Assembly: GCA_016235825.1 (NCBI GenBank)
Contig: JACRIL010000102.1
Span: 751 to 64,750, forward strand
DNA from: Planctomycetota bacterium
GTDB lineage: Bacteria > Planctomycetota > Phycisphaerae > SM23-33
Direction of reading: 5' to 3'
DNA length: 64,000 nt
The first letter of the stretch is position 1; each line of letters begins with the position of its first letter. The notes under the pieces were generated by a model. It ran no database searches and was not told where the DNA came from. It worked only from the letters and a program-made list of their open reading frames with translations. Of this stretch, positions 1,649 to 62,385 are shown piece by piece. The position numbers were made by a program, and so were the translations under genes.

Positions 1649-2632
1649 TTATTTACAGATGGCCTCGCGCAGAAGCCTTGACGATTCCGTCGCATCGCCC
1701 TTTCGGATGACCTCGGCGATTCTGTCCAGCCCCATTTTCTCGAGCAGGCCCCTCAGGCCGTTGACCCAGGCGATGGATTCCTCGACCGCCCGCAGGCCGT
1801 TCTCCCGGTAGGGAAAGATGTCCAATGTGTAGTAATCGTCGTAACCCGTCCGATCGAGCCAGTACAGCATCTCGAGCGCCTCGATGGTGTGGACGGACCC
1901 GAACATCATGTCGTCGTCCCAGTCGCCGTAATTGTCGTTGATGTGGATGTAAAAAAGCCTTTTGCGCCCGCCGCTGTTGACCATCGCCACGGCTTCAGCG
2001 GGGTTTTCCTGTGCCGCCGAGGAATGTCCGCTGTCTATCAGGATTCCGACGTTGTCCCTGCCGATGGTGTCGACCAGCAGGACCGTGCGTGGCGCGTTGT
2101 TCGTGAAGATGTGCGTGCGCGGCTCTTTCTGCTTGTATTCCACGCAGATCTTGACGTCCTTCCTGTGGTCCGCGCACTGCCGGACGCCTTCGATGATCTG
2201 CTCCCACGCTTCGAGGTAATCGGCCTGGAAGGCATAATCGTATCCGTCCTGCCCGAGCCAGACGTCGACCTTGTCGCAGCCGACCCGCGCCGCCATGTCC
2301 ATGGACTTTTTAACCTCATCCGCGGCGGCCCTGCGGATCGACGCGTCCTTCGAAGTGAAGCTTCCTTTCCCCCATTTGGCTTGAGTCCAGAGGTCCGGCA
2401 CCATCATCGAAACCGCCAGCCCGGCGTTCTTCAGGCAGACGCTGATTTCATCAAAGTTTTTTTCGTTGACGTGCCAGTTTCCGACCAGCTCTATTCCCTT
2501 CAACTCCTTCACCTTCGACGCCAGGGCGATCATCTCCGGAACGGTCCTGTTTGTGCCGTAGCCCGACAGACAATACCGGTCTGCGCAAGAGCCGAATGGC
2601 GGGAGACACGCGCCGAACTTCAACTTTTTCAT
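1649..2632 (-). CDS. sugar phosphate isomerase/epimerase (xylose-isomerase-like TIM barrel)
   Basis: Full-length ORF with typical family composition (…IHINDNYGDWDDD…). Start taken at MKKLKF with an AGAGGA RBS. Tandem with and upstream of the RLP gene. Confidence 0.8.
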   Translation of the reverse strand: MKKLKFGACLPPFGSCADRYCLSGYGTNRTVPEMIALASKVKELKGIELVGNWHVNEKNFDEISVCLKNAGLAVSMMVPDLWTQAKWGKGSFTSKDASIRRAAADEVKKSMDMAARVGCDKVDVWLGQDGYDYAFQADYLEAWEQIIEGVRQCADHRKDVKICVEYKQKEPRTHIFTNNAPRTVLLVDTIGRDNVGILIDSGHSSAAQENPAEAVAMVNSGGRKRLFYIHINDNYGDWDDDMMFGSVHTIEALEMLYWLDRTGYDDYYTLDIFPYRENGLRAVEESIAWVNGLRGLLEKMGLDRIAEVIRKGDATESSRLLREAICK

Positions 2633-2839
2633 GCCTGTCCTCTTTGAATGTTTATTAAAAAAAGTGCAGAATTCTTTATGAATGATGAATGGCACATATC
2701 GCCAGCAGAATTGTGATTATCTCAAAGACGGCCGGAAATTCAAGCATAATTCGTTTTCCCTTGTTCATTTTCCCGGTTCTGCCGCTCCGAATTCGGCTGA
2801 GGCCTTGCCCGGCCCGGCCTGACCGGTGATAATCAGATT

Positions 2840-4030
2840 GTGAGCGAGGAGCGCCTTTTTATCGGGCTGTACAGCGGGCCTGCCGCCGACGGGATAGACG
2901 CGGCCCTGGCGTCCGTCGTCGGCGCCGGCGAGGCGATATCGGTCAGGCAGGTTTTGGCTATTCACCACGAATTGCCAGATCAGGCCCGCAGATGGGTCCT
3001 GATGTTCGGCGCCGGTCCGCGCGAACCCATGCCAAACCAGGGTCAGGCCGGCTCGCTGGGCCCGTCGGGCGTGGCGGTGGGTCTTGCCATGCTCGACCGC
3101 GACCTGGGCCAGGCATTCGCGTCGGCCGCCGAGGAACTGCTGGCCGCCGCTGACGTGCAGGCACAGGACGTCTCGGCCGTCGGCATGAGCGGCCAGGCCA
3201 TCGCGCACATCCCGCCCGACATATCCCGCCCGACGGGCGCGGGCCTGGAACTCGGCTGCCCGGCCATCGTGGCAAGAAAGATCGCCAGGCCGGTCGTCGC
3301 GGAATTTTCCAAATGCGACATCGCCGCAGGCGGACAGGGCGGGCCGATCTGTGCCTGGGCCGACTGGATACTCATGCGGCACGAGACGCTCAGCCGGGCC
3401 GTCGTCCATTTGGGCGGCATCGCCTCGCTGACCTTCGTGCCCGCCGCCGCACAGGCCTGCGATGTCGTGGCATGGGACGTCGGGCCGGGCACCTGCCTGC
3501 TGGACGACCTGGCCCACAAGCTGTTCAACAGGCCCTTCGACCACGACGGCGGCATCGCCTCGGCCGGCAAGGTCAACCCAGCCCTGCTCAACGAAATGAT
3601 GTCGCATCCTTACTTCCAGCTTCCGCCGCCCAAGACCACCAGCCGCAACGAATGGGGCGCATCGCACGTCTGGCGGGTGCTCAACGCCGCCCAAAAGCAC
3701 GCCTGCGACGGGGCCGATCTGCTGGCCACCGTAGCCGAATGTTCGGCGATGCTGATCGCAAAGGCCCTGGCCGGCCTGACCGAAAGGCCGCACGAGATAA
3801 TCCTCTCCGGCGGCGGGGCCATGAACATTTCGCTGGCGGGAAAAATCAGAAAGCTCATGTCCCCGTGCAGCACTTACACGGTCGAGCGATACGGTTGTGG
3901 CATCAGGTCGTACCGGGCCGTGTGCATGGCCGTCCTGGCCGCGGCAAGGCTCGACGGCATTCAGATATCCTGCCCCGCCGCCACAGGCTCGCCTGTCCCG
4001 GCAACCCTCGGTTCACTCACCCTGCCATGA
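2840..4030 (+). CDS. anmK: anhydro-N-acetylmuramic acid kinase
   Basis: GTG start. N-terminal LFIGLYSGPAADGIDAAL (cf. AnmK MSGTSxDGIDxAL) and C-terminal SGGGAMN motif. Confidence 0.85.
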   Translation: MSEERLFIGLYSGPAADGIDAALASVVGAGEAISVRQVLAIHHELPDQARRWVLMFGAGPREPMPNQGQAGSLGPSGVAVGLAMLDRDLGQAFASAAEELLAAADVQAQDVSAVGMSGQAIAHIPPDISRPTGAGLELGCPAIVARKIARPVVAEFSKCDIAAGGQGGPICAWADWILMRHETLSRAVVHLGGIASLTFVPAAAQACDVVAWDVGPGTCLLDDLAHKLFNRPFDHDGGIASAGKVNPALLNEMMSHPYFQLPPPKTTSRNEWGASHVWRVLNAAQKHACDGADLLATVAECSAMLIAKALAGLTERPHEIILSGGGAMNISLAGKIRKLMSPCSTYTVERYGCGIRSYRAVCMAVLAAARLDGIQISCPAATGSPVPATLGSLTLP

Positions 4031-4080
4031 TGATGCTTGTCGCAAATGGTCGACGACCGGAAGGCGGTTGATTTTCCCGG

Positions 4081-4192
4081 CACAACTGTTTTCAGCCCGC
4101 AGGGCGGCTGAAAGTAGCCCCGTCCGTAGCGCAGCGAAGGGCGGGGAAAAGGTTGCGCCGAGTTCAGAGTCCCTTGCGGGCGATTGAAATCG
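4081..4192. repeat. dispersed structured repeat, family C (small GCCCGCAGGGC hairpin + TGAAAGTAGCC + CCCCGTCC…GGGCGGGG hairpin + CCCTTGCGGGCGATTGAA)
   Basis: Homologous copies seen at 11681..11765 and 17360..17475, plus an inverted copy at 17476..17570. Related modules at 28290..28440 and 32195..32395. The CCCTTGCGGGCGATTGAA tail also appears near 20925. Confidence 0.7.
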
Positions 4193-4317
4193 GCATCATT
4201 CCCAAACCTTGTCCGGATCGAACCGCACGCCGTGCCGTTCGAGGAACTTCGAGGAATTCATCTTCAAAGGAAACAACCTTGTGATGGCCTGAATGGGATT
4301 CGTGGTATAATATCCTC

Positions 4318-4746
4318 ATGTCCCGGAGGCGAAAGATAACCTGGCTTGTCGTCCTGCTGGTCCTGGCCGGCGGCTCCGGCGGTTATTGCTGGTACTGGCG
4401 GTCCACCGCCGTCGACCGCAAGGTCCGCCAACTTGTCTACGAAGCCGCAGGATACCCGGACACAAGGACAGAAAGAATCCTCAGGAAAATGAAACTGGAT
4501 TTCCTGATCCGCGAAAAGCCAAAATCCAGAAGAGATGATGGAATGATGTTTTGGGAAGAGAGCGTTATAGTCAAGGAAATTGAAGCTATCGGTATTGCTG
4601 CCACACCAGAACTCCTTTCTATGCTTAAAGACGAGAATAACGATATACGCTATAAGGCTGCCGAATTCCTCGGTCGGATCAGAGACGCAAGGTCGATTGA
4701 ACCCTTGATACAGATACTGCAGACAGAACATGATTTAAAAGTTTGA
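4318..4746 (+). CDS. HEAT-repeat (PBS-lyase-type) protein, N-terminal part with TM anchor; ends at in-frame TGA
   Basis: N-terminal hydrophobic helix followed by HEAT-like repeats. Low-GC region. Same reading frame as the 4789..5415 ORF. Confidence 0.6.
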   Translation: MSRRRKITWLVVLLVLAGGSGGYCWYWRSTAVDRKVRQLVYEAAGYPDTRTERILRKMKLDFLIREKPKSRRDDGMMFWEESVIVKEIEAIGIAATPELLSMLKDENNDIRYKAAEFLGRIRDARSIEPLIQILQTEHDLKV

Positions 4747-4788
4747 AGATTTTTACCTTACGTTCTTAGTTGGTTTGGGGACAAAAGA

Positions 4789-5415
4789 GTGGTAGATCCG
4801 CTGATTATGGCAATGCAGAAGGATTCAGATTCAGAGGTTCGTTGCCACTCAGCTATCGCCCTCGCTAAACTTGGCGACAAAAGGGCGGTAGACCCGCTGA
4901 TCCGGGCAATGCGGAATGATTCAGATTCACAAGTACGTTGGTATTCAATTATTGCCCTTGATGAACTTGGTGACAAAAGAGCGGCTGTACCGTTGATAGA
5001 GATATTGCAGAAAAATGAAATAGGGTATGTCCGACGACATGCAGCTGAAGTCCTTGGGAAACTGGGCGACACAAGAGCATTAGAACCACTGATTGAGGCA
5101 ATGCAGAAGGATGCTGATAGGAATGTCCGATATGCTTCGGTAACAGCTCTTGGCAAACTGGGTGACAAAAAAGCTTTTGAGCCTCTCATGCAAGCTTTGG
5201 CAAAGGATAGGGATGAAGATCATTTTATTCAAGGATACGCGGCAGTCGCCCTTGGCGAACTTGGCGATCCTCGCGCATTAAATGCAGTTGAAGACGCATA
5301 TAAAAATGATTTTGACAAGACTTCGCATCAATTCTACGAGGCAGCGATAGCGAAGCTCAAGTCCGCCGCGACGAGGCCGGGGGAGGTTGGCACGCGGCCG
5401 GCGGGAAAACTATAA
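4789..5415 (+). CDS. HEAT-repeat protein, C-terminal continuation (same frame as 4318..4746)
   Basis: Five tandem repeats of the type AxxALGKLGDKRAVxPLIxAMxxDxDxxVR. Its 'start' is a GTG inside a repeat unit, 14 codons after the TGA. Confidence 0.6.
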   Translation: MVDPLIMAMQKDSDSEVRCHSAIALAKLGDKRAVDPLIRAMRNDSDSQVRWYSIIALDELGDKRAAVPLIEILQKNEIGYVRRHAAEVLGKLGDTRALEPLIEAMQKDADRNVRYASVTALGKLGDKKAFEPLMQALAKDRDEDHFIQGYAAVALGELGDPRALNAVEDAYKNDFDKTSHQFYEAAIAKLKSAATRPGEVGTRPAGKL

Positions 5416-11625: not shown

Positions 11626-11777
11626 GCTTTGCGGTTCTCGCCTAAAAAATATTTGATTGGGTATAGATCAGATTCTACAGGGCGTTTGAAAGTAGCACGG
11701 CCCCTGAGCGAAGCAGAACGGGGGAATGGTTGCACCAGGTTCTGAGTTCTTTGCGGATTCAGCGTAACCATGTTTAA

Positions 11778-11925
11778 GGCCCGCAGGGCCGGCAGATAGT
11801 AGCCCCGGGTGCAGCGAGTCCGCCGTCAGGCGGACGAAGCGCAACCCGGGGTATGATGGCCATTAAATGGATGCCTGAATATTCGCTCGCGACACGGCAG
11901 AAGAACCTGTATCAAGAAACACCCA
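11778..11925. repeat. dispersed structured repeat, family B (GGCCCGCAGGGCCGG + AGATAGTAGCC + CCCGGG…hairpin…CCCGGGG + conserved tail)
   Basis: About 150 bp homologous to 27913..28063 over its whole length. Immediately downstream of the family C copy at 11681..11765. Confidence 0.7.
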
Positions 11926-12273
11926 GCCAATGATTTTGGTCGGGGCATTTACCCATTAGGGTGGTAAACCATACTCGGTCAAGACTTGTCCGGCGAAGTC
12001 AGGTTAAGGTGTTATTTTTCTCTACAATCGACTAATTTTTCATCGAAAGATATTGGCCTGTGCGTTCCGGGATTTGGGATCATCTGCCGTGGCGTGATCG
12101 CACCTTTTGAAATGCTCTGAACGGCGACTATTCCCCGGGTTCCGCTGGGGCAACTGACCTGGCCGCCGCATCGCCATATCGGATGCCTCCGGGATGATTC
12201 GATCTTGCCAAGAGGGAAAAATGCGGGTAAAGACAATAGTTGAGCGGTTTTTCCGCATGACTGGAGCATACAG

Positions 12274-13835: not shown

Positions 13836-13864
13836 TTGGCAGGCGGCCGGCTGCGGCGTAGAAT
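13836..13864 (+). promoter_or_regulatory. sigma70-like promoter (TTGGCA-17-TAGAAT)
   Basis: TTGGCA at 13836..13841, 17-nt spacer, TAGAAT at 13859..13864. Same -10 hexamer as the hisI promoter. Confidence 0.4.
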
Positions 13865-13870
13865 ACAATA

Positions 13871-14088
13871 CGCTTCAGGGTTTCTGCCGTGTCCGACAGG
13901 CGGTTAGATTGAAAGGCCGATACGCCCGTTTCGGGAGGCAAGCGCGTGTTGCTCCGGCGACAGCCAGCCGCCCACTTGAAATAACGGGTCTTTCAAGCAG
14001 CCGCCACCGGCACAAAGGCGGACGCCCGGGCAATTTGGACGATGCACCTCTGTGCATCAGCCCACGGCTTGCCGTGGGCTTTTTTTTC
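13871..14088 (+). ncRNA. candidate small RNA (promoter-to-terminator transcription unit, identity unknown)
   Basis: Lies between the predicted promoter (13836..13864) and a strong intrinsic terminator. Contains several stable hairpins and no ORF with an RBS. Not matched by recall to RNase P, SRP, tmRNA or 6S consensus. Confidence 0.3.
14059..14087 (+). terminator. Rho-independent terminator
   Basis: AGCCCACGGCTTGCCGTGGGCT hairpin followed by TTTTTTT. Confidence 0.7.
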
Positions 14089-15319: not shown

Positions 15320-15495
15320 GCTTCACAGTCGGTGGCACCCTCAAGCGAAACGAAGTGAAGCTTGGGGGTGGAGTTTTTGAAGGCATCAATAAAAATAACC
15401 AGCACCCCCAAACTCCGCTTCCGGCTTTGCCCCTGCTTCGCTGAAGCTTCGCAGGGCTGCGCCGGACAAGCCGCTTCGTTTGAGGGTGCCACCGG
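15320..15495. mobile_element. MITE-like element with ~25-bp terminal inverted repeats (GGTGGCACCCTCAAGCGAAACGAAG…CTTCGTTTGAGGGTGCCACC)
   Basis: Perfect TIRs seen directly. A second copy in opposite orientation at 28115..28262 matches along its whole ~150 bp. No coding capacity. Confidence 0.65.
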
Positions 15496-17359: not shown

Positions 17360-17570
17360 CCTGTCAGCCCGTTAGGGCGTTTGCCAGTAGCCCCGTCCCG
17401 GAGTGAAGCGGAGGGCGGGGTATCCGGCGTCATACAATTCGAGCCCCTTGCGGGCGATTGAATGCAAAGATCCTTCCCAGGGTTTCGCTTCATCCGCCTG
17501 AAGGCGGACTTCGCTCCACTCTGGGCTACTATCAAACGCCATCTGTCGGGCTGAAAACAACTGTTCCAGG
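17360..17570. repeat. head-to-head pair of family C repeats
   Basis: 17360..17475 is co-linear with 4081..4192. 17476..17570 is the reverse complement of the CTGTTTTCAGCCCG…AGTAGCC…hairpin module. Confidence 0.65.
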
Positions 17571-27912: not shown

Positions 27913-28063
27913 GAGGCCCGACGGGCCGGAAGATAGTAGCCCCAGGTGAAGCGGAGGACGGCGGCAACCGTCCGAAGCGCAACCTGGGGACAGATCGTCA
28001 TTAAATAAGTTTCCAAATCTCCGTTTGCGCCACGGCAGAAGCGGCAGAATTTTTGAATACCAC
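27913..28063. repeat. family B repeat (second copy)
   Basis: Co-linear with 11778..11925. Confidence 0.7.
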
Positions 28064-28114: not shown

Positions 28115-28262
28115 GGCAGGCGGCGCCCTCAAACGAAGCGGCTTGTCCGGCGTAGTCTTGACGAAGCCGGAAGCAGAGTTTGGGGTGCCGGTTAATTTAT
28201 TGACGCCTTCAAAAACTTCACCCCCAAGCTTCACTTCGTTTCGCTTGAGGGTGCCACCGGCC
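28115..28262. mobile_element. MITE-like element, second copy (inverted relative to 15320..15495)
   Basis: Reverse complement matches the 15320..15495 element essentially end to end, including the TIRs. Confidence 0.65.
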
Positions 28263-28289: not shown

Positions 28290-28440
28290 GGCATTTGAAA
28301 GTCAAGCCCCGTCTGCCGGCGGCGGGATCGAAAATTTGAAACTTCATCGGATGGAGGTTTTCCCCGGGTTTCGCTTCGTCCGCCTGACGGCGGACTGCGT
28401 TGCACCCGGGGCTACTTTCTGCCGGCTCTTCGAGCCTTCA
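28290..28440. repeat. composite repeat (family C-like head plus inverted family B core)
   Basis: CATTTGAAAGTCAAGCCCCGTC…GGCGGGA followed by the reverse complement of AGTAGCCCCGGGTGCA…CGGACGAAGCGAAACCCGGGG. Confidence 0.55.
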
Positions 28441-32194: not shown

Positions 32195-32395
32195 CGGAGC
32201 AACCGATTCGCAGGCTCGAAGAGCCGGTAGACAGTAGCCGTAGGCGTAAGCCTACGGTACGGATTGCTCCAGGATAAAGAGCCTCGGAGAGGCGACAGAA
32301 ATTTCTGAAAGTCTGTGCCGCCTCGTCGAGGCTCAAATCATAATGGGCCTGAATTCCGGAGGCTTACGCCTCCGGCTACTCTCTTCCAACCCTTC
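32195..32395. repeat. inverted pair of AGTAGCC + GTAA-tetraloop hairpin modules
   Basis: GACAGTAGCCGTAGGCGTAAGCCTACGG (+) and the reverse complement of GAGAGTAGCCGGAGGCGTAAGCCTCCGG, with GAAAGTCTG between. Confidence 0.55.
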
Positions 32396-32520
32396 GGGTT
32401 TGGACTTTCGACTTCAATGGTTGAACTTATGCGGCAAAGGGTTATTATGGCCAAAATCATGAATACCAACCTGCTTTGTTACGGCGACAATTTTGACGGG
32501 CAGGGAAAAGGCAAATCGCA

Positions 32521-38732: not shown

Positions 38733-38816
38733 CATCCCCCTGCTGGCGCAGGGGGCTTTATGATCGGTTCGCCGACGGATTTGTTTTAAAGCCCCGCATG
38801 TAAATGCGGGGATGCC
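38733..38816. repeat. paired hairpin repeats, family D (CCCCCTGCTGGCGCAGGGGGCTTTATGA and AAAGCCCCGCATGTAAATGCGGGGATGC)
   Basis: The same two hairpins recur at 62343..62371 and 61971..61998, both just upstream of gene starts. GTAA/GTTA tetraloops. Confidence 0.65.
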
Positions 38817-61954: not shown

Positions 61955-62029
61955 CGGCGCCGCATATTTTTAAAGCCCCGCATGTTAATGCGGGGATGCT
62001 GTTGTGATTTAGAGTCCCTAATGCTCTGT

Positions 62030-62300
62030 TGAAAAGCTTTGTTTAGCCCGATTCATCGGGCTTGGGTTGTTTGACAGGCCCCCGCTTTAGCGGGGGTAAA
62101 TGGCGGCGAAACGTCTTCTTTTTTTGTCTTGTAATGTGTCGGTTTGTCAGATTGGGACGATTTAGCACCGGAATATACTATTATGCTTGAACATAATAAA
62201 ATATCACAAAATAAAACAAGCGAAATGCCTCATCGCTGAACCCCCGCTGAAGCGGGGGCCTGTTACACGACACAGGCAGATCGGTGTGGCTTTTCAAGAG
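62030..62300. mobile_element. MITE-like element: AT-rich core flanked by imperfect ~60-bp inverted repeats ending in CAGGCCCCCGCTT(T/C)AGCGGGGGT hairpins
   Basis: Left arm TTGAAAAGC…CAGGCCCCCGCTTTAGCGGGGGT. Right arm reverse-complements to TTGAAAAGC…CAGGCCCCCGCTTCAGCGGGGGT. Core 62110..62230 is about 70% AT with a promoter-like TTGAAC…TAAAAT. Confidence 0.4.
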
Positions 62301-62385
62301 AGCATTTGGAACTCTTAAATAATAACACACGTCCCCCTGCTCGCGCAGGGGGCTTTATGAATCTTACATCAGAAAGGAACAGGCA

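Follow-up and report, generated by a model that had tools for sequence, protein, structure and literature searches.

The Acido-Lenti-1 motif was described in Acidobacteria and Lentisphaerae, where it is sometimes found near group II introns, and was rated as probably RNA and not cis-regulatory (Weinberg et al., 2010, PMC2864571). Rfam has listed it since 2010 as a small RNA without an assigned function (RF01687; entry type Gene; sRNA), and it is as such an already known, catalogued but unexplained bacterial element. The RF01687 seed consists of 87 sequences, 70 of them unique, and the element is multi-copy: about a dozen seed copies come from Koribacter versatilis, those of Lentisphaera araneosa are arranged in tandem runs at 74-200 nt spacing and in inverted pairs, and Rhodopirellula and Geobacter are represented as well. 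A second group of elements with a similar appearance are the GTAG-tagged REPs, in which one end of a short, imperfect and GC-rich palindrome carries an unpaired GTAG (GYAG/GTRG; Nunvar 2010; Di Nocera 2013, PMC3733652).

Here, we analysed a 64-kb stretch of DNA, referred to as the window throughout, from a Planctomycetota metagenome-assembled genome (MAG). It belongs to a contig of 74 kb, and exact matches to its proteins are MBI5723861, MBI5723867, MBI5723887 and MBI5723903, each bearing the name 'Planctomycetes bacterium'. A first-pass annotation, made from the sequence alone, had described in this window a dispersed structured repeat with two families, B and C, which it could not assign to a named family.

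Nine copies of one hairpin module in the window

The window has a GC content of 60% and contains nine copies of one module, which are distributed over five intergenic regions. Read on the strand that carries the tag GTAG (the GTAG strand), the module begins with a small hairpin, P2 (4-6 bp with a GNA loop), followed by a conserved 12-nt linker, GGNAGAWA-GTAG, which ends in the tag, and by a GC-rich hairpin, P1. In its canonical form, P1 is an 8-bp GC-rich hairpin with a GNRA loop and directly follows the tag. About 20 nt 3' of P1 lies another small hairpin, P2b; Verrucomicrobiota copies have the same arrangement, which also shows up in partial model matches beside many modules. The five intergenic regions are:

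4031-4317, between AnmK and a HEAT-repeat gene, holds B1
11626-12273, between a 403-aa ORF and QueF, holds B3 and C1
17287-17615, between two short-chain dehydrogenase genes, holds B2 and C4
27669-28668, between a glycosyltransferase gene and GluQ-RS, holds C2 and C3
32100-32520, between an FHA-domain gene and a 107-aa ORF, holds A1 and A2

A hand-written descriptor (the tag, an arbitrary 7-bp stem and an arbitrary small hairpin) matched 58 sites in the window and 69-112 in shuffled sequences and was too permissive, and a covariance model, R1, was therefore used instead. R1 represents the GTAG strand and was built from 26 gapless canonical modules, two from the window and 24 from other genomes. 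Gapless sequences were chosen in place of a MAFFT alignment of 49 modules, in which 5-bp and 6-bp P2 hairpins fell into different registers. The copies and their parts are given below, with scores from R1:

4093..4148, + strand, B1 core module (37.2 bits, E 6.5e-9)
4095-4105, + strand, P2 of B1, GCCC-GCA-GGGC
4114-4117, + strand, GTAG tag of B1
4118-4146, + strand, P1 of B1, CCCCGTCC / 13-nt tip / GGGCGGGG, one T.G wobble on the GTAG strand
4167..4189, + strand, tail of B1, a P2b-like small hairpin (CCC-TTGC-GGG) and the linker CGATTGAAA
11681..11765, + strand, B3, a degenerate B-type copy truncated at its 5' end, with one half of P2 missing and GTAGCA in place of the usual tag
11776..11853, + strand, C1 core module (40.2 bits at 11776-11811; DNA-fold z -5.0)
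11778-11790, + strand, P2 of C1
11799-11802, + strand, GTAG tag of C1
11803-11851, + strand, P1 of C1 with the inserted inner hairpin GTCCGCC-GTCA-GGCGGAC
17365..17422, + strand, B2 core module (22.4 bits, E 1e-4)
17367-17378, + strand, P2 of B2
17387-17390, + strand, GTAG tag of B2
17391-17420, + strand, P1 of B2
17443-17455, + strand, tail hairpin of B2
17476..17553, - strand, C4, a degenerate C-type module (9.1 bits)
17529-17526, - strand, GTAG tag of C4
17525-17476, - strand, P1 of C4
27913..27989, + strand, C2 core module (36.2 bits at 27913-27959)
27915-27927, + strand, P2 of C2
27936-27939, + strand, GTAG tag of C2
27940-27989, + strand, P1 of C2 with the inner hairpin GGACGG..CCGTCC, unlike that of C1 in sequence
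28362..28438, - strand, C3 core module, the inverted partner of C2 (39.4 bits at 28403-28438)
32211..32259, + strand, A1, canonical module with 8-bp P1 and GTAA loop (66.4 bits)
32354..32402, - strand, A2, canonical module and inverted partner of A1 (63.2 bits)
32279-32309, + strand, and 32308-32334, - strand, two inverted P2b hairpins with linkers in the centre of the A1/A2 doublet

Seven solid copies were detected with R1 in the window, with E-values ranging from 1e-4 down to 1e-17, and the two P2b hairpins in the centre of A1/A2 gave partial matches of 22.2 and 13.6 bits. The degenerate copy B3 was missed by the model and detected by BLAST only (75% identity to B1 over 81 nt); its tail leads straight into C1, around which C-type similarity spans approximately 11751-11960. 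C4 is 84-86% identical to C1 and C3 over 58 nt. The box RWAGTAGCC occurs six times in the window, compared with 0.53 expected occurrences, and none of 100 shuffles reached six. At least eight copies had been listed in the first-pass annotation, and every one of them is present at or near the place where it was reported, with the amendment that what had been taken as one copy at 32195..32395 is in fact two canonical copies in inverted orientation. Also in agreement with that annotation, which had placed the repeats exclusively in intergenic DNA, all nine copies are flanked by ORFs whose GC3 signature is that of coding sequence, a signature lacking in the ORFs that overlap the repeats. The copies are 70-88% identical to each other and their flanks are unrelated, indicating that they are old dispersed copies and not the product of a local duplication; with differences of 12-30%, there is no sign of recent movement.

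The repeats belong to the Acido-Lenti-1 family

A search of Rfam, which had been suggested together with the first description of the repeats, gave the family its name. The Acido-Lenti-1 model (RF01687) matched A2 at 32356-32401 on the + strand with 47.6 bits and A1 at 32212-32257 on the - strand with 43.9 bits, both above the gathering score of 37. Three further copies scored below this threshold (C1, 30.4 bits; C2, 25.6 bits; C3, 25.4 bits), and for B1, B2, B3 and C4 no match to the RF01687 covariance model was obtained in the window. In the model alignments, the A copies show the RF01687 layout of an 8-bp hairpin, a 12-nt linker starting with GGCUA and a 5-bp hairpin, and the B and C copies keep this layout with the first hairpin enlarged. 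The Rfam consensus (8-bp hairpin, GGCUA plus 7 nt, 5-bp hairpin) is the reverse complement of the module as it is read on the GTAG strand. We are therefore highly confident that the repeats in this Planctomycetota MAG belong to the Acido-Lenti-1 family and include variants with an enlarged P1. CRISPR-DR46, c-di-GMP-I-GGC and the remaining sub-threshold Rfam matches scored far under their thresholds and were dismissed.

Families B and C do not represent separate elements; they consist of this module with additional sequence, in many cases another hairpin, inserted into the P1 tip. This tip measures 13-14 nt in the B copies and about 33 nt in the C copies, where it forms a further hairpin. Enlarged tips are also common elsewhere: among the matches listed, the P1 loop is 4 nt long in 66 of 134 full metagenome modules and up to 31 nt in the remainder, and C1 is 75-82% identical to four metagenome loci across the entire expanded P1. 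Both hairpins form in every window copy upon folding, and with DNA parameters the GTAG strand gave z-scores of -2.9 to -5.8 in six of seven copies and of -1.2 in B2. The tag GTAG directly abuts P1 in eight of the nine window copies; in the degenerate copy B3, CA comes after the tag and the stem has a shifted position. Among the 134 new modules, the tag is GTAG in 103, ATAG in 19 and TTAG in 4, 79 of these having been retrieved with a GTAG-bearing pattern. In the Rfam seed, GTAG is present in only 5 of 70 sequences; the first G is not conserved and YAG is general. The small hairpin that the first-pass annotation had considered common to all copies is indeed kept as a structure, but its sequence is not fixed (GCCC/GGGC, GGCCC/GGGCC, GGCTC/GAGCC, AACCC/GGGTT). 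Similarly, the conserved tails reported there do recur, also in other phyla, but are better described as a third small hairpin with its linker, namely P2b.

The stems covary and fold better on the strand opposite to that annotated in Rfam

Compensatory changes had already been proposed for the window copies, and these are real: CCCCGGGT/ACCCGGGG in one copy corresponds to CCCCAGGT/ACCTGGGG in another, and the inner hairpin at the tip of P1 differs completely between two copies and is nevertheless paired in both (GTCCGCC..GGCGGAC versus GGACGG..CCGTCC). In a model-fitted alignment of 140 distinct modules, standard pairs occupy 98.8% of the cells and 11 of the 13 pairs have changes on both sides, amounting to 228 cells. 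None of 500 shuffles matched the observed covariation values, and sliding the partners against each other reduced pairing to 34-65%. As an alignment of this kind leans toward structure, we also used a separate test that is free of this bias, based on loci retrieved with a pattern in which nothing is specified beyond the linker, the tag and the 5' half of P1. Among the matches listed, an exact P1 complement was present within 75 nt in 83 of 117 usable sites, and a perfect 5-bp P2 was found at the right distance in 85 of the 117, with at least ten different stem sequences. Both the alignment and the pattern-retrieved loci hence show that pairing is kept by compensatory change.

Several observations bear on the question of which strand is structured. 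On the strand annotated in Rfam, the non-Watson-Crick stem pairs of the RF01687 seed are 38 A.C and 8 G.U, which is equivalent to 38 G.U and 8 A.C on the GTAG strand, counts that are not independent as they come mostly from two positions and from related copies. A weak bias in the same direction is seen in the new modules (14 G.T versus 5 A.C on the GTAG strand), and B1 and B2 have one T.G pair each on this strand. Folding energies computed with RNA parameters favour the GTAG strand by 2-7 kcal/mol in all nine window copies; with DNA parameters, this strand is favoured in six of seven. Read on the GTAG strand, 62 of the 66 P1 tetraloops are of the GNRA type (GTAA 33, GTGA 15, GCGA 7, GCAA 5, GGAA 1, GGGA 1) and the P2 loops are mostly GNA (GGA, GAA, GCA, GTA). 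GNRA and GNA loops are stable in RNA and, as minihairpins of the d(GCGAAGC) type, in single-stranded DNA, and they hence mark the strand and not the molecule. Taken together, the structured strand is probably the opposite of the one annotated in Rfam.

Homologous modules are found in several phyla

Using a 19-nt linker/tag pattern, we retrieved 34 stretches from species-representative genomes, a number close to chance expectation. Inspected site by site together with the predicted fold, 17 of the 34 were judged to contain the full two-hairpin module, and these are clustered: a single Terriglobia MAG accounts for ten of them and a single Verrucomicrobia MAG for four, and two further Verrucomicrobiota MAGs and a Bryobacterales MAG contain one each. 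A related linker/tag pattern retrieved at least 120 stretches from metagenomes. Among the matches listed, model R1 gave 159 + 48 = 207 matches with E <= 1e-3 in 155 loci from MAGs and metagenomes; the positive loci come from Verrucomicrobiota, Terriglobia and Bryobacterales MAGs as well as from metagenomes. As a negative control, R1 was run on 19 viral contigs that share a 15-base linker/tag pattern; it found no module in them, and these viral sequences were set aside as chance matches. The repeats are thus not confined to the window, and this spread across MAGs and metagenomes, together with the covarying stems, bears out the initial view of a dispersed structured repeat family. The 12-nt linker, GGNAGAWAGTAG, shows almost no variation among Planctomycetota, Verrucomicrobiota, Acidobacteriota and Lentisphaerota. 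Conservation extends over a unit of about 330 nt, which contains an inverted doublet, in one Terriglobia MAG; in an alignment of eight copies from Terriglobia, similarity fades gradually and the ends of the element are not sharp.

Modules form inverted doublets outside genes

A neighbour within 400 nt was found for 109 of 190 full modules, the other 81 being unpaired. In 47 of 55 neighbouring pairs, the two modules are inverted with the tags pointing outward and the P1 hairpins facing each other, mostly with gaps of 77-133 nt. The window contains three such doublets, B2/C4, which are 53 nt apart, C2/C3 and A1/A2, the last of which folds as one long hairpin in a single strand (-61 kcal/mol, z -7.4). 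An unrelated MITE-like insert is present at 28119-28259, in the spacer between C2 and C3.

According to a GC3-based gene call, 105 of 109 units are located outside genes. Twelve units lie between co-directional, eight between convergent and two between divergent genes. Single modules between co-directional genes have no orientation bias, with four in sense and three in antisense. No promoter-like or terminator-like site was detected at any of the window copies, and the same scan recovered both for the 6S RNA gene that is also encoded in the window (13878-14028, with a promoter at 13836-13864 and a terminator at 14059-14080).

Search for an associated transposase

No Y1/RAYT gene was detected in the window by tblastn with E. 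coli RayT (from NC_000913). Using a Terriglobales Y1_Tnp as a query in addition to E. coli RayT, we extended the search to the window plus 174 loci, or about 1.07 Mb. Three Y1-like ORFs (those of loci L067 and L124, and a relic in L061) were identified within 0.68 Mb of module-bearing metagenome DNA, and no Y1-like ORF flanked by modules was found in the ~1.07 Mb, where a gene present once or twice per genome, compared with hundreds of modules, is easily missed. A database search with E. coli RayT returned enterobacterial relatives only and no transposases from PVC bacteria or Acidobacteriota.

Each of the three ORFs was considered as the module transposase and rejected. The Y1_Tnp gene in the module-bearing locus L067 has ends of its own, which form a different double hairpin; in L067 and its homologue L177, these ends consist of an inverted GTGTCAG and GGCACGAC-TTTA-GTCGTGCC, followed after ~22 nt by GGGC-TTTA-GCCC. 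Ends of the L067 type are conserved in a 70%-identical homologue that has no modules within 10 kb. The RAYT-like ORF L124 is flanked by ~112-nt tandem repeats of another family. Lastly, L061 contains a relic of a RAYT C-terminus at a distance of 650 nt from a module; most homologues of this relic are short fragments, and no modules were found at three loci of its relatives.

Discussion

On balance, we lean towards the view that the repeats in the window form a single extragenic, REP/REPIN-like palindromic family, which carries the core of Acido-Lenti-1 on the opposite strand and would be mobilised by an HUH enzyme. That they are extragenic palindromic repeats of the REP/REPIN type rather than a set of sRNA genes is likely. 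The first-pass annotation had named both options, REP/BIME-like elements or a small-RNA family. The extragenic location, the GTAG beside a palindrome and the inverted doublets speak for the former, and the latter is less supported since the copies have no promoter or terminator, occur in both orientations and fold better on the strand opposite to that in Rfam. We use the term REP to describe a likeness and not an established membership, as the searches of ~1.07 Mb did not reveal a tyrosine transposase associated with the modules.

We speculate that the elements are non-autonomous REP/REPIN-like DNA, and that the hairpins of the GTAG strand form in single-stranded DNA, from which the elements would be copied or moved. 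An HUH tyrosine transposase (RAYT or IS200-IS605 kind), acting in trans, could recognise the hairpins by their tag and stem; mobilisation by such an enzyme via single-stranded hairpins is what we infer. When a module is transcribed within a neighbouring mRNA, its hairpins may double as passive 3' structures. Such a passive role at the RNA level in flanking transcripts would be a second one and is compatible with the data.

Other explanations have to account for the same structures. It is rather doubtful, although far from implausible, that the modules are primarily cis-acting RNA structures in untranslated regions, such as 3' exonuclease barriers, intercistronic stabilisers or insulators between convergent genes, whose fold is kept by selection of the host for a function in the mRNA, whatever first spread the elements. 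The preference for co-directional (12) and convergent (8) over divergent (2) contexts would fit this well, as would the GNRA loops and G.U wobbles and the ability of doublets to give a hairpin whichever strand is transcribed; E. coli REPs are also known to stabilise upstream mRNA (PMC3733652). However, single modules lack a sense bias (4 versus 3), no U-tract follows the hairpins, and a passive hairpin would not need the 12-nt single-stranded linker that is kept across phyla. GNA and GNRA loops are stable in ssDNA too, so that they do not tell RNA and DNA apart. Very unlikely, in our opinion, is the interpretation under which Rfam files Acido-Lenti-1, namely independent small-RNA genes with their own promoter that act in trans. 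Matches above the Rfam threshold and strong covariation are in line with it, as is the rating of the motif as probably RNA and not cis-regulatory (Weinberg et al., 2010, PMC2864571). Nine copies within 64 kb and dozens per genome in the seed, the inverted doublets and the use of both orientations are difficult to reconcile with small-RNA genes, and so are 38 A.C mismatches against 8 G.U pairs on the annotated strand and the lack of promoter- or terminator-like sites at the copies, in a window whose 6S RNA gene has both.

We consider it just as improbable that the elements are classical MITEs, that is, deletion derivatives of a DDE insertion sequence in which the arms of the doublet represent terminal inverted repeats and which duplicate their target site as they move by cut-and-paste. 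In favour of this, the doublets form long imperfect palindromes (200-330 nt) and the window does hold an unrelated MITE-like element, but many modules are single or in tandem (B1, B3-C1; 81 of 190 unpaired), what is conserved is a hairpin structure with a subterminal tag and not a terminal sequence, and no transposase with module ends was seen. Practically no weight has to be given to hairpins that arose by chance or to a local segmental duplication limited to this contig. Apart from the window being GC-rich (60%), nothing points in this direction, and the R1 E-values of 1e-4 down to 1e-17, the box count of 6 versus 0.53 expected and the presence of homologues in other phyla and many metagenomes, with flanks that are not shared between copies, all contradict this. 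One might also speculate that the module does not depend on a RAYT at all. In that case, which we regard as unlikely, the linker would be the putative site of a conserved protein acting on ssDNA or RNA, and the half-unit with its three hairpins would represent a new class of structured element that has been misfiled as an sRNA on the wrong strand. If true, candidates for the linker protein would include a host factor or a mobilising enzyme of another kind.

Returning to the REP/REPIN-like interpretation, the window and approximately 200 related copies indicate that Acido-Lenti-1 is a dispersed, doublet-forming palindromic repeat, of which a large share of copies, namely those with an enlarged P1 like B and C, escape the Rfam model. 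This affects annotation, as Acido-Lenti-1 sites should not be called sRNA genes. It would also extend elements of the REP/REPIN type into the PVC group and the Acidobacteriota, with an unusual half-unit of three hairpins and a conserved linker. The finding by itself does not open a new kind of biology; its main value lies in re-reading the strand and the nature of an Rfam family and in recording variants that its model misses.

Comparison with known elements

The module shares with Acido-Lenti-1 an 8-bp hairpin with a 4-nt loop, a 5-bp hairpin with a 3-nt loop and a 12-nt linker with GGCUA, and both are multi-copy with no fixed gene association. They differ in that Rfam describes an sRNA on the strand opposite to the best-folding one, and in that the family was reported for Acidobacteria and Lentisphaerae, its seed also including two sequences from Rhodopirellula, whereas the copies reported here are from a Planctomycetota MAG. 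In contrast to the Rfam model, the P1 tips of the B and C copies in the window are 9-30 nt larger, which leaves them below threshold, and neither the doublet organisation nor the P2b hairpin is part of the Rfam description. Bacterial MITEs such as Correia and ERIC are likewise short, non-coding, dispersed, largely palindromic and intergenic, but their defining features are terminal inverted repeats and the target-site duplications that a DDE transposase generates; single half-units are common here.

The double-palindromic terminal repeats that belong to tyrosine transposases of acidobacteria ('TIRYT'; Di Nocera et al., 2013, PMC3733652), as seen in L067 and L177, match the layout of the P1-P2b half of the module: a tag (..CAG) is followed by an 8-bp stem with a 4-nt loop, ~22 nt and a 4-bp small hairpin, and in both cases the copies are inverted with the tags outermost. 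They differ in their unrelated sequence, in having no P2 outside the tag and in enclosing a Y1_Tnp gene, while the doublets of the window enclose only ~100 nt. The parallel between these Terriglobales Y1 ends and P1-P2b supports the idea that the modules may work like such ends, as distinct from being members of the same family.

Compared with GTAG-tagged REPs, the half-units in the window carry two extra small hairpins (P2 and P2b) and the 12-nt conserved linker, the first base of the tag is variable across the wider Acido-Lenti-1 family, and no RAYT gene flanked by modules was found in ~1.07 Mb of module-bearing DNA. The stems are also unlike the Opitutus GTAG-18 stem, as back-translated by us from the intragenic-REP peptides of PMC3733652. 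The likeness to GTAG-tagged REPs, BIMEs and REPINs (PMC3733652) lies in the organisation of the elements: in both, GTAG is located directly 5' of a GC-rich imperfect palindrome, the elements are multi-copy and extragenic, and inverted doublets can fold back into one long hairpin. Both also show G.T pairs on one strand and are found preferentially between co-directional or convergent genes.

Other repeats and structured elements in the window

In addition to the modules of the Acido-Lenti-1 family (Rfam RF01687), the window contains several further repeats and one structured RNA gene:

15330-15493 and 28119-28259: MITE-like element of ~164 nt, two inverted copies
38736-38815 and 61971-62362: two intergenic regions, each with the same two additional small hairpin repeats
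13878-14028 (+): 6S RNA gene (Rfam RF00013, 49.2 bits)

The MITE-like element has the terminal inverted repeats GGTGGCACCCTCAAGCGAAACGAAG ... CTTCGTTTGAGGGTGCCACC, and its two copies are 79% identical overall and 97% identical along one 64-nt stretch. The second copy lies in the spacer of the C2/C3 doublet, an inverted pair of modules; the element itself is unrelated to the Acido-Lenti-1 modules. The small hairpin repeats, AAAGCCCCGCATGT(A/T)AATGCGGGGATGC and TCCCCCTGCT(G/C)GCGCAGGGGGCTTTATGA, match only the part of our covariance model that describes the GC-rich hairpin P1, and are found without the small hairpin P2 and without the linker. At 62060-62277, a 140-nt AT-rich stretch is located between the inverted GC-rich hairpins GGCCCCCGCTTTAGCGGGGGT and ACCCCCGCTGAAGCGGGGGCC; this site also gives a weak match to CRISPR-DR46, which scores 29.7 bits where the threshold is 50 and is not a credible hit.

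The 6S RNA gene has its own sigma-70-like promoter (13836-13864) and intrinsic terminator (14059-14080). Four tandem 96-nt coding repeats with 60-78% identity (4775-5158) are found on the coding strand directly downstream of ORF 4318-4746. We take them to be putative HEAT / PBS-lyase-type coding repeats, where the match to these families is that of the neighbouring ORF.

Transposase-like genes and genes bracketed by modules

Transposase-like genes were found at loci outside the window, among them:

L067, 3525-4190 (-): Y1_Tnp (PF01797) gene, Terriglobales
L177, 10001-10525 (+): Y1_Tnp (PF01797) gene, Terriglobales, L067 homologue
L124, 2411-2779 (-), in the region 2150-3120: RAYT-like ORF, 122 aa

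The two Y1_Tnp genes are highly conserved, with at least 120 relatives at 66-91% identity in the matches listed. At their borders, both have an inverted double hairpin that is itself conserved and reads GTGTCAG-GGCACGAC-TTTA-GTCGTGCC ... GGGC-TTTA-GCCC; in L067, the gene separates the two cytochrome bd subunit genes. The RAYT-like ORF of L124 has on both sides tandem structured repeats of ~112 nt (CTGGAGGGATGCCGGCCTCGGCATCCGCGG...), which are a different repeat family from the Acido-Lenti-1 modules. Fragments of one RAYT type (MPEHVHLL ... EKLRYIHRNPVKRGL) make up many short ORFs of 36-86 aa in public data (proteins P0241-P0328), and a gene of this type at L178 (3762-4255), broken by a frameshift, is flanked by the hairpins CCCCAGAGTTGG-CGTAGTT-CCAACTCTGGGG.

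In a Verrucomicrobia MAG, inverted modules spaced 575-740 nt apart (L022 6599-7439 and L023 2637-3308) bracket no transposase but instead small genes, namely a membrane-like ORF of 152 aa and a Cys-rich one of 111 aa.

A minihairpin core in enlarged P1 tips

Enlarged P1 tips, and adjoining repeats of Terriglobia contigs, repeatedly carry GAGCGAAGCGA(G/A)-type motifs:

L045, ~3990-4040: GAGCGAAGCGA(G/A)-type motifs
A5, e.g. L076 and L131: motifs of this type in P1 tips

Their core is GCGAAGC, a known and very stable DNA minihairpin.
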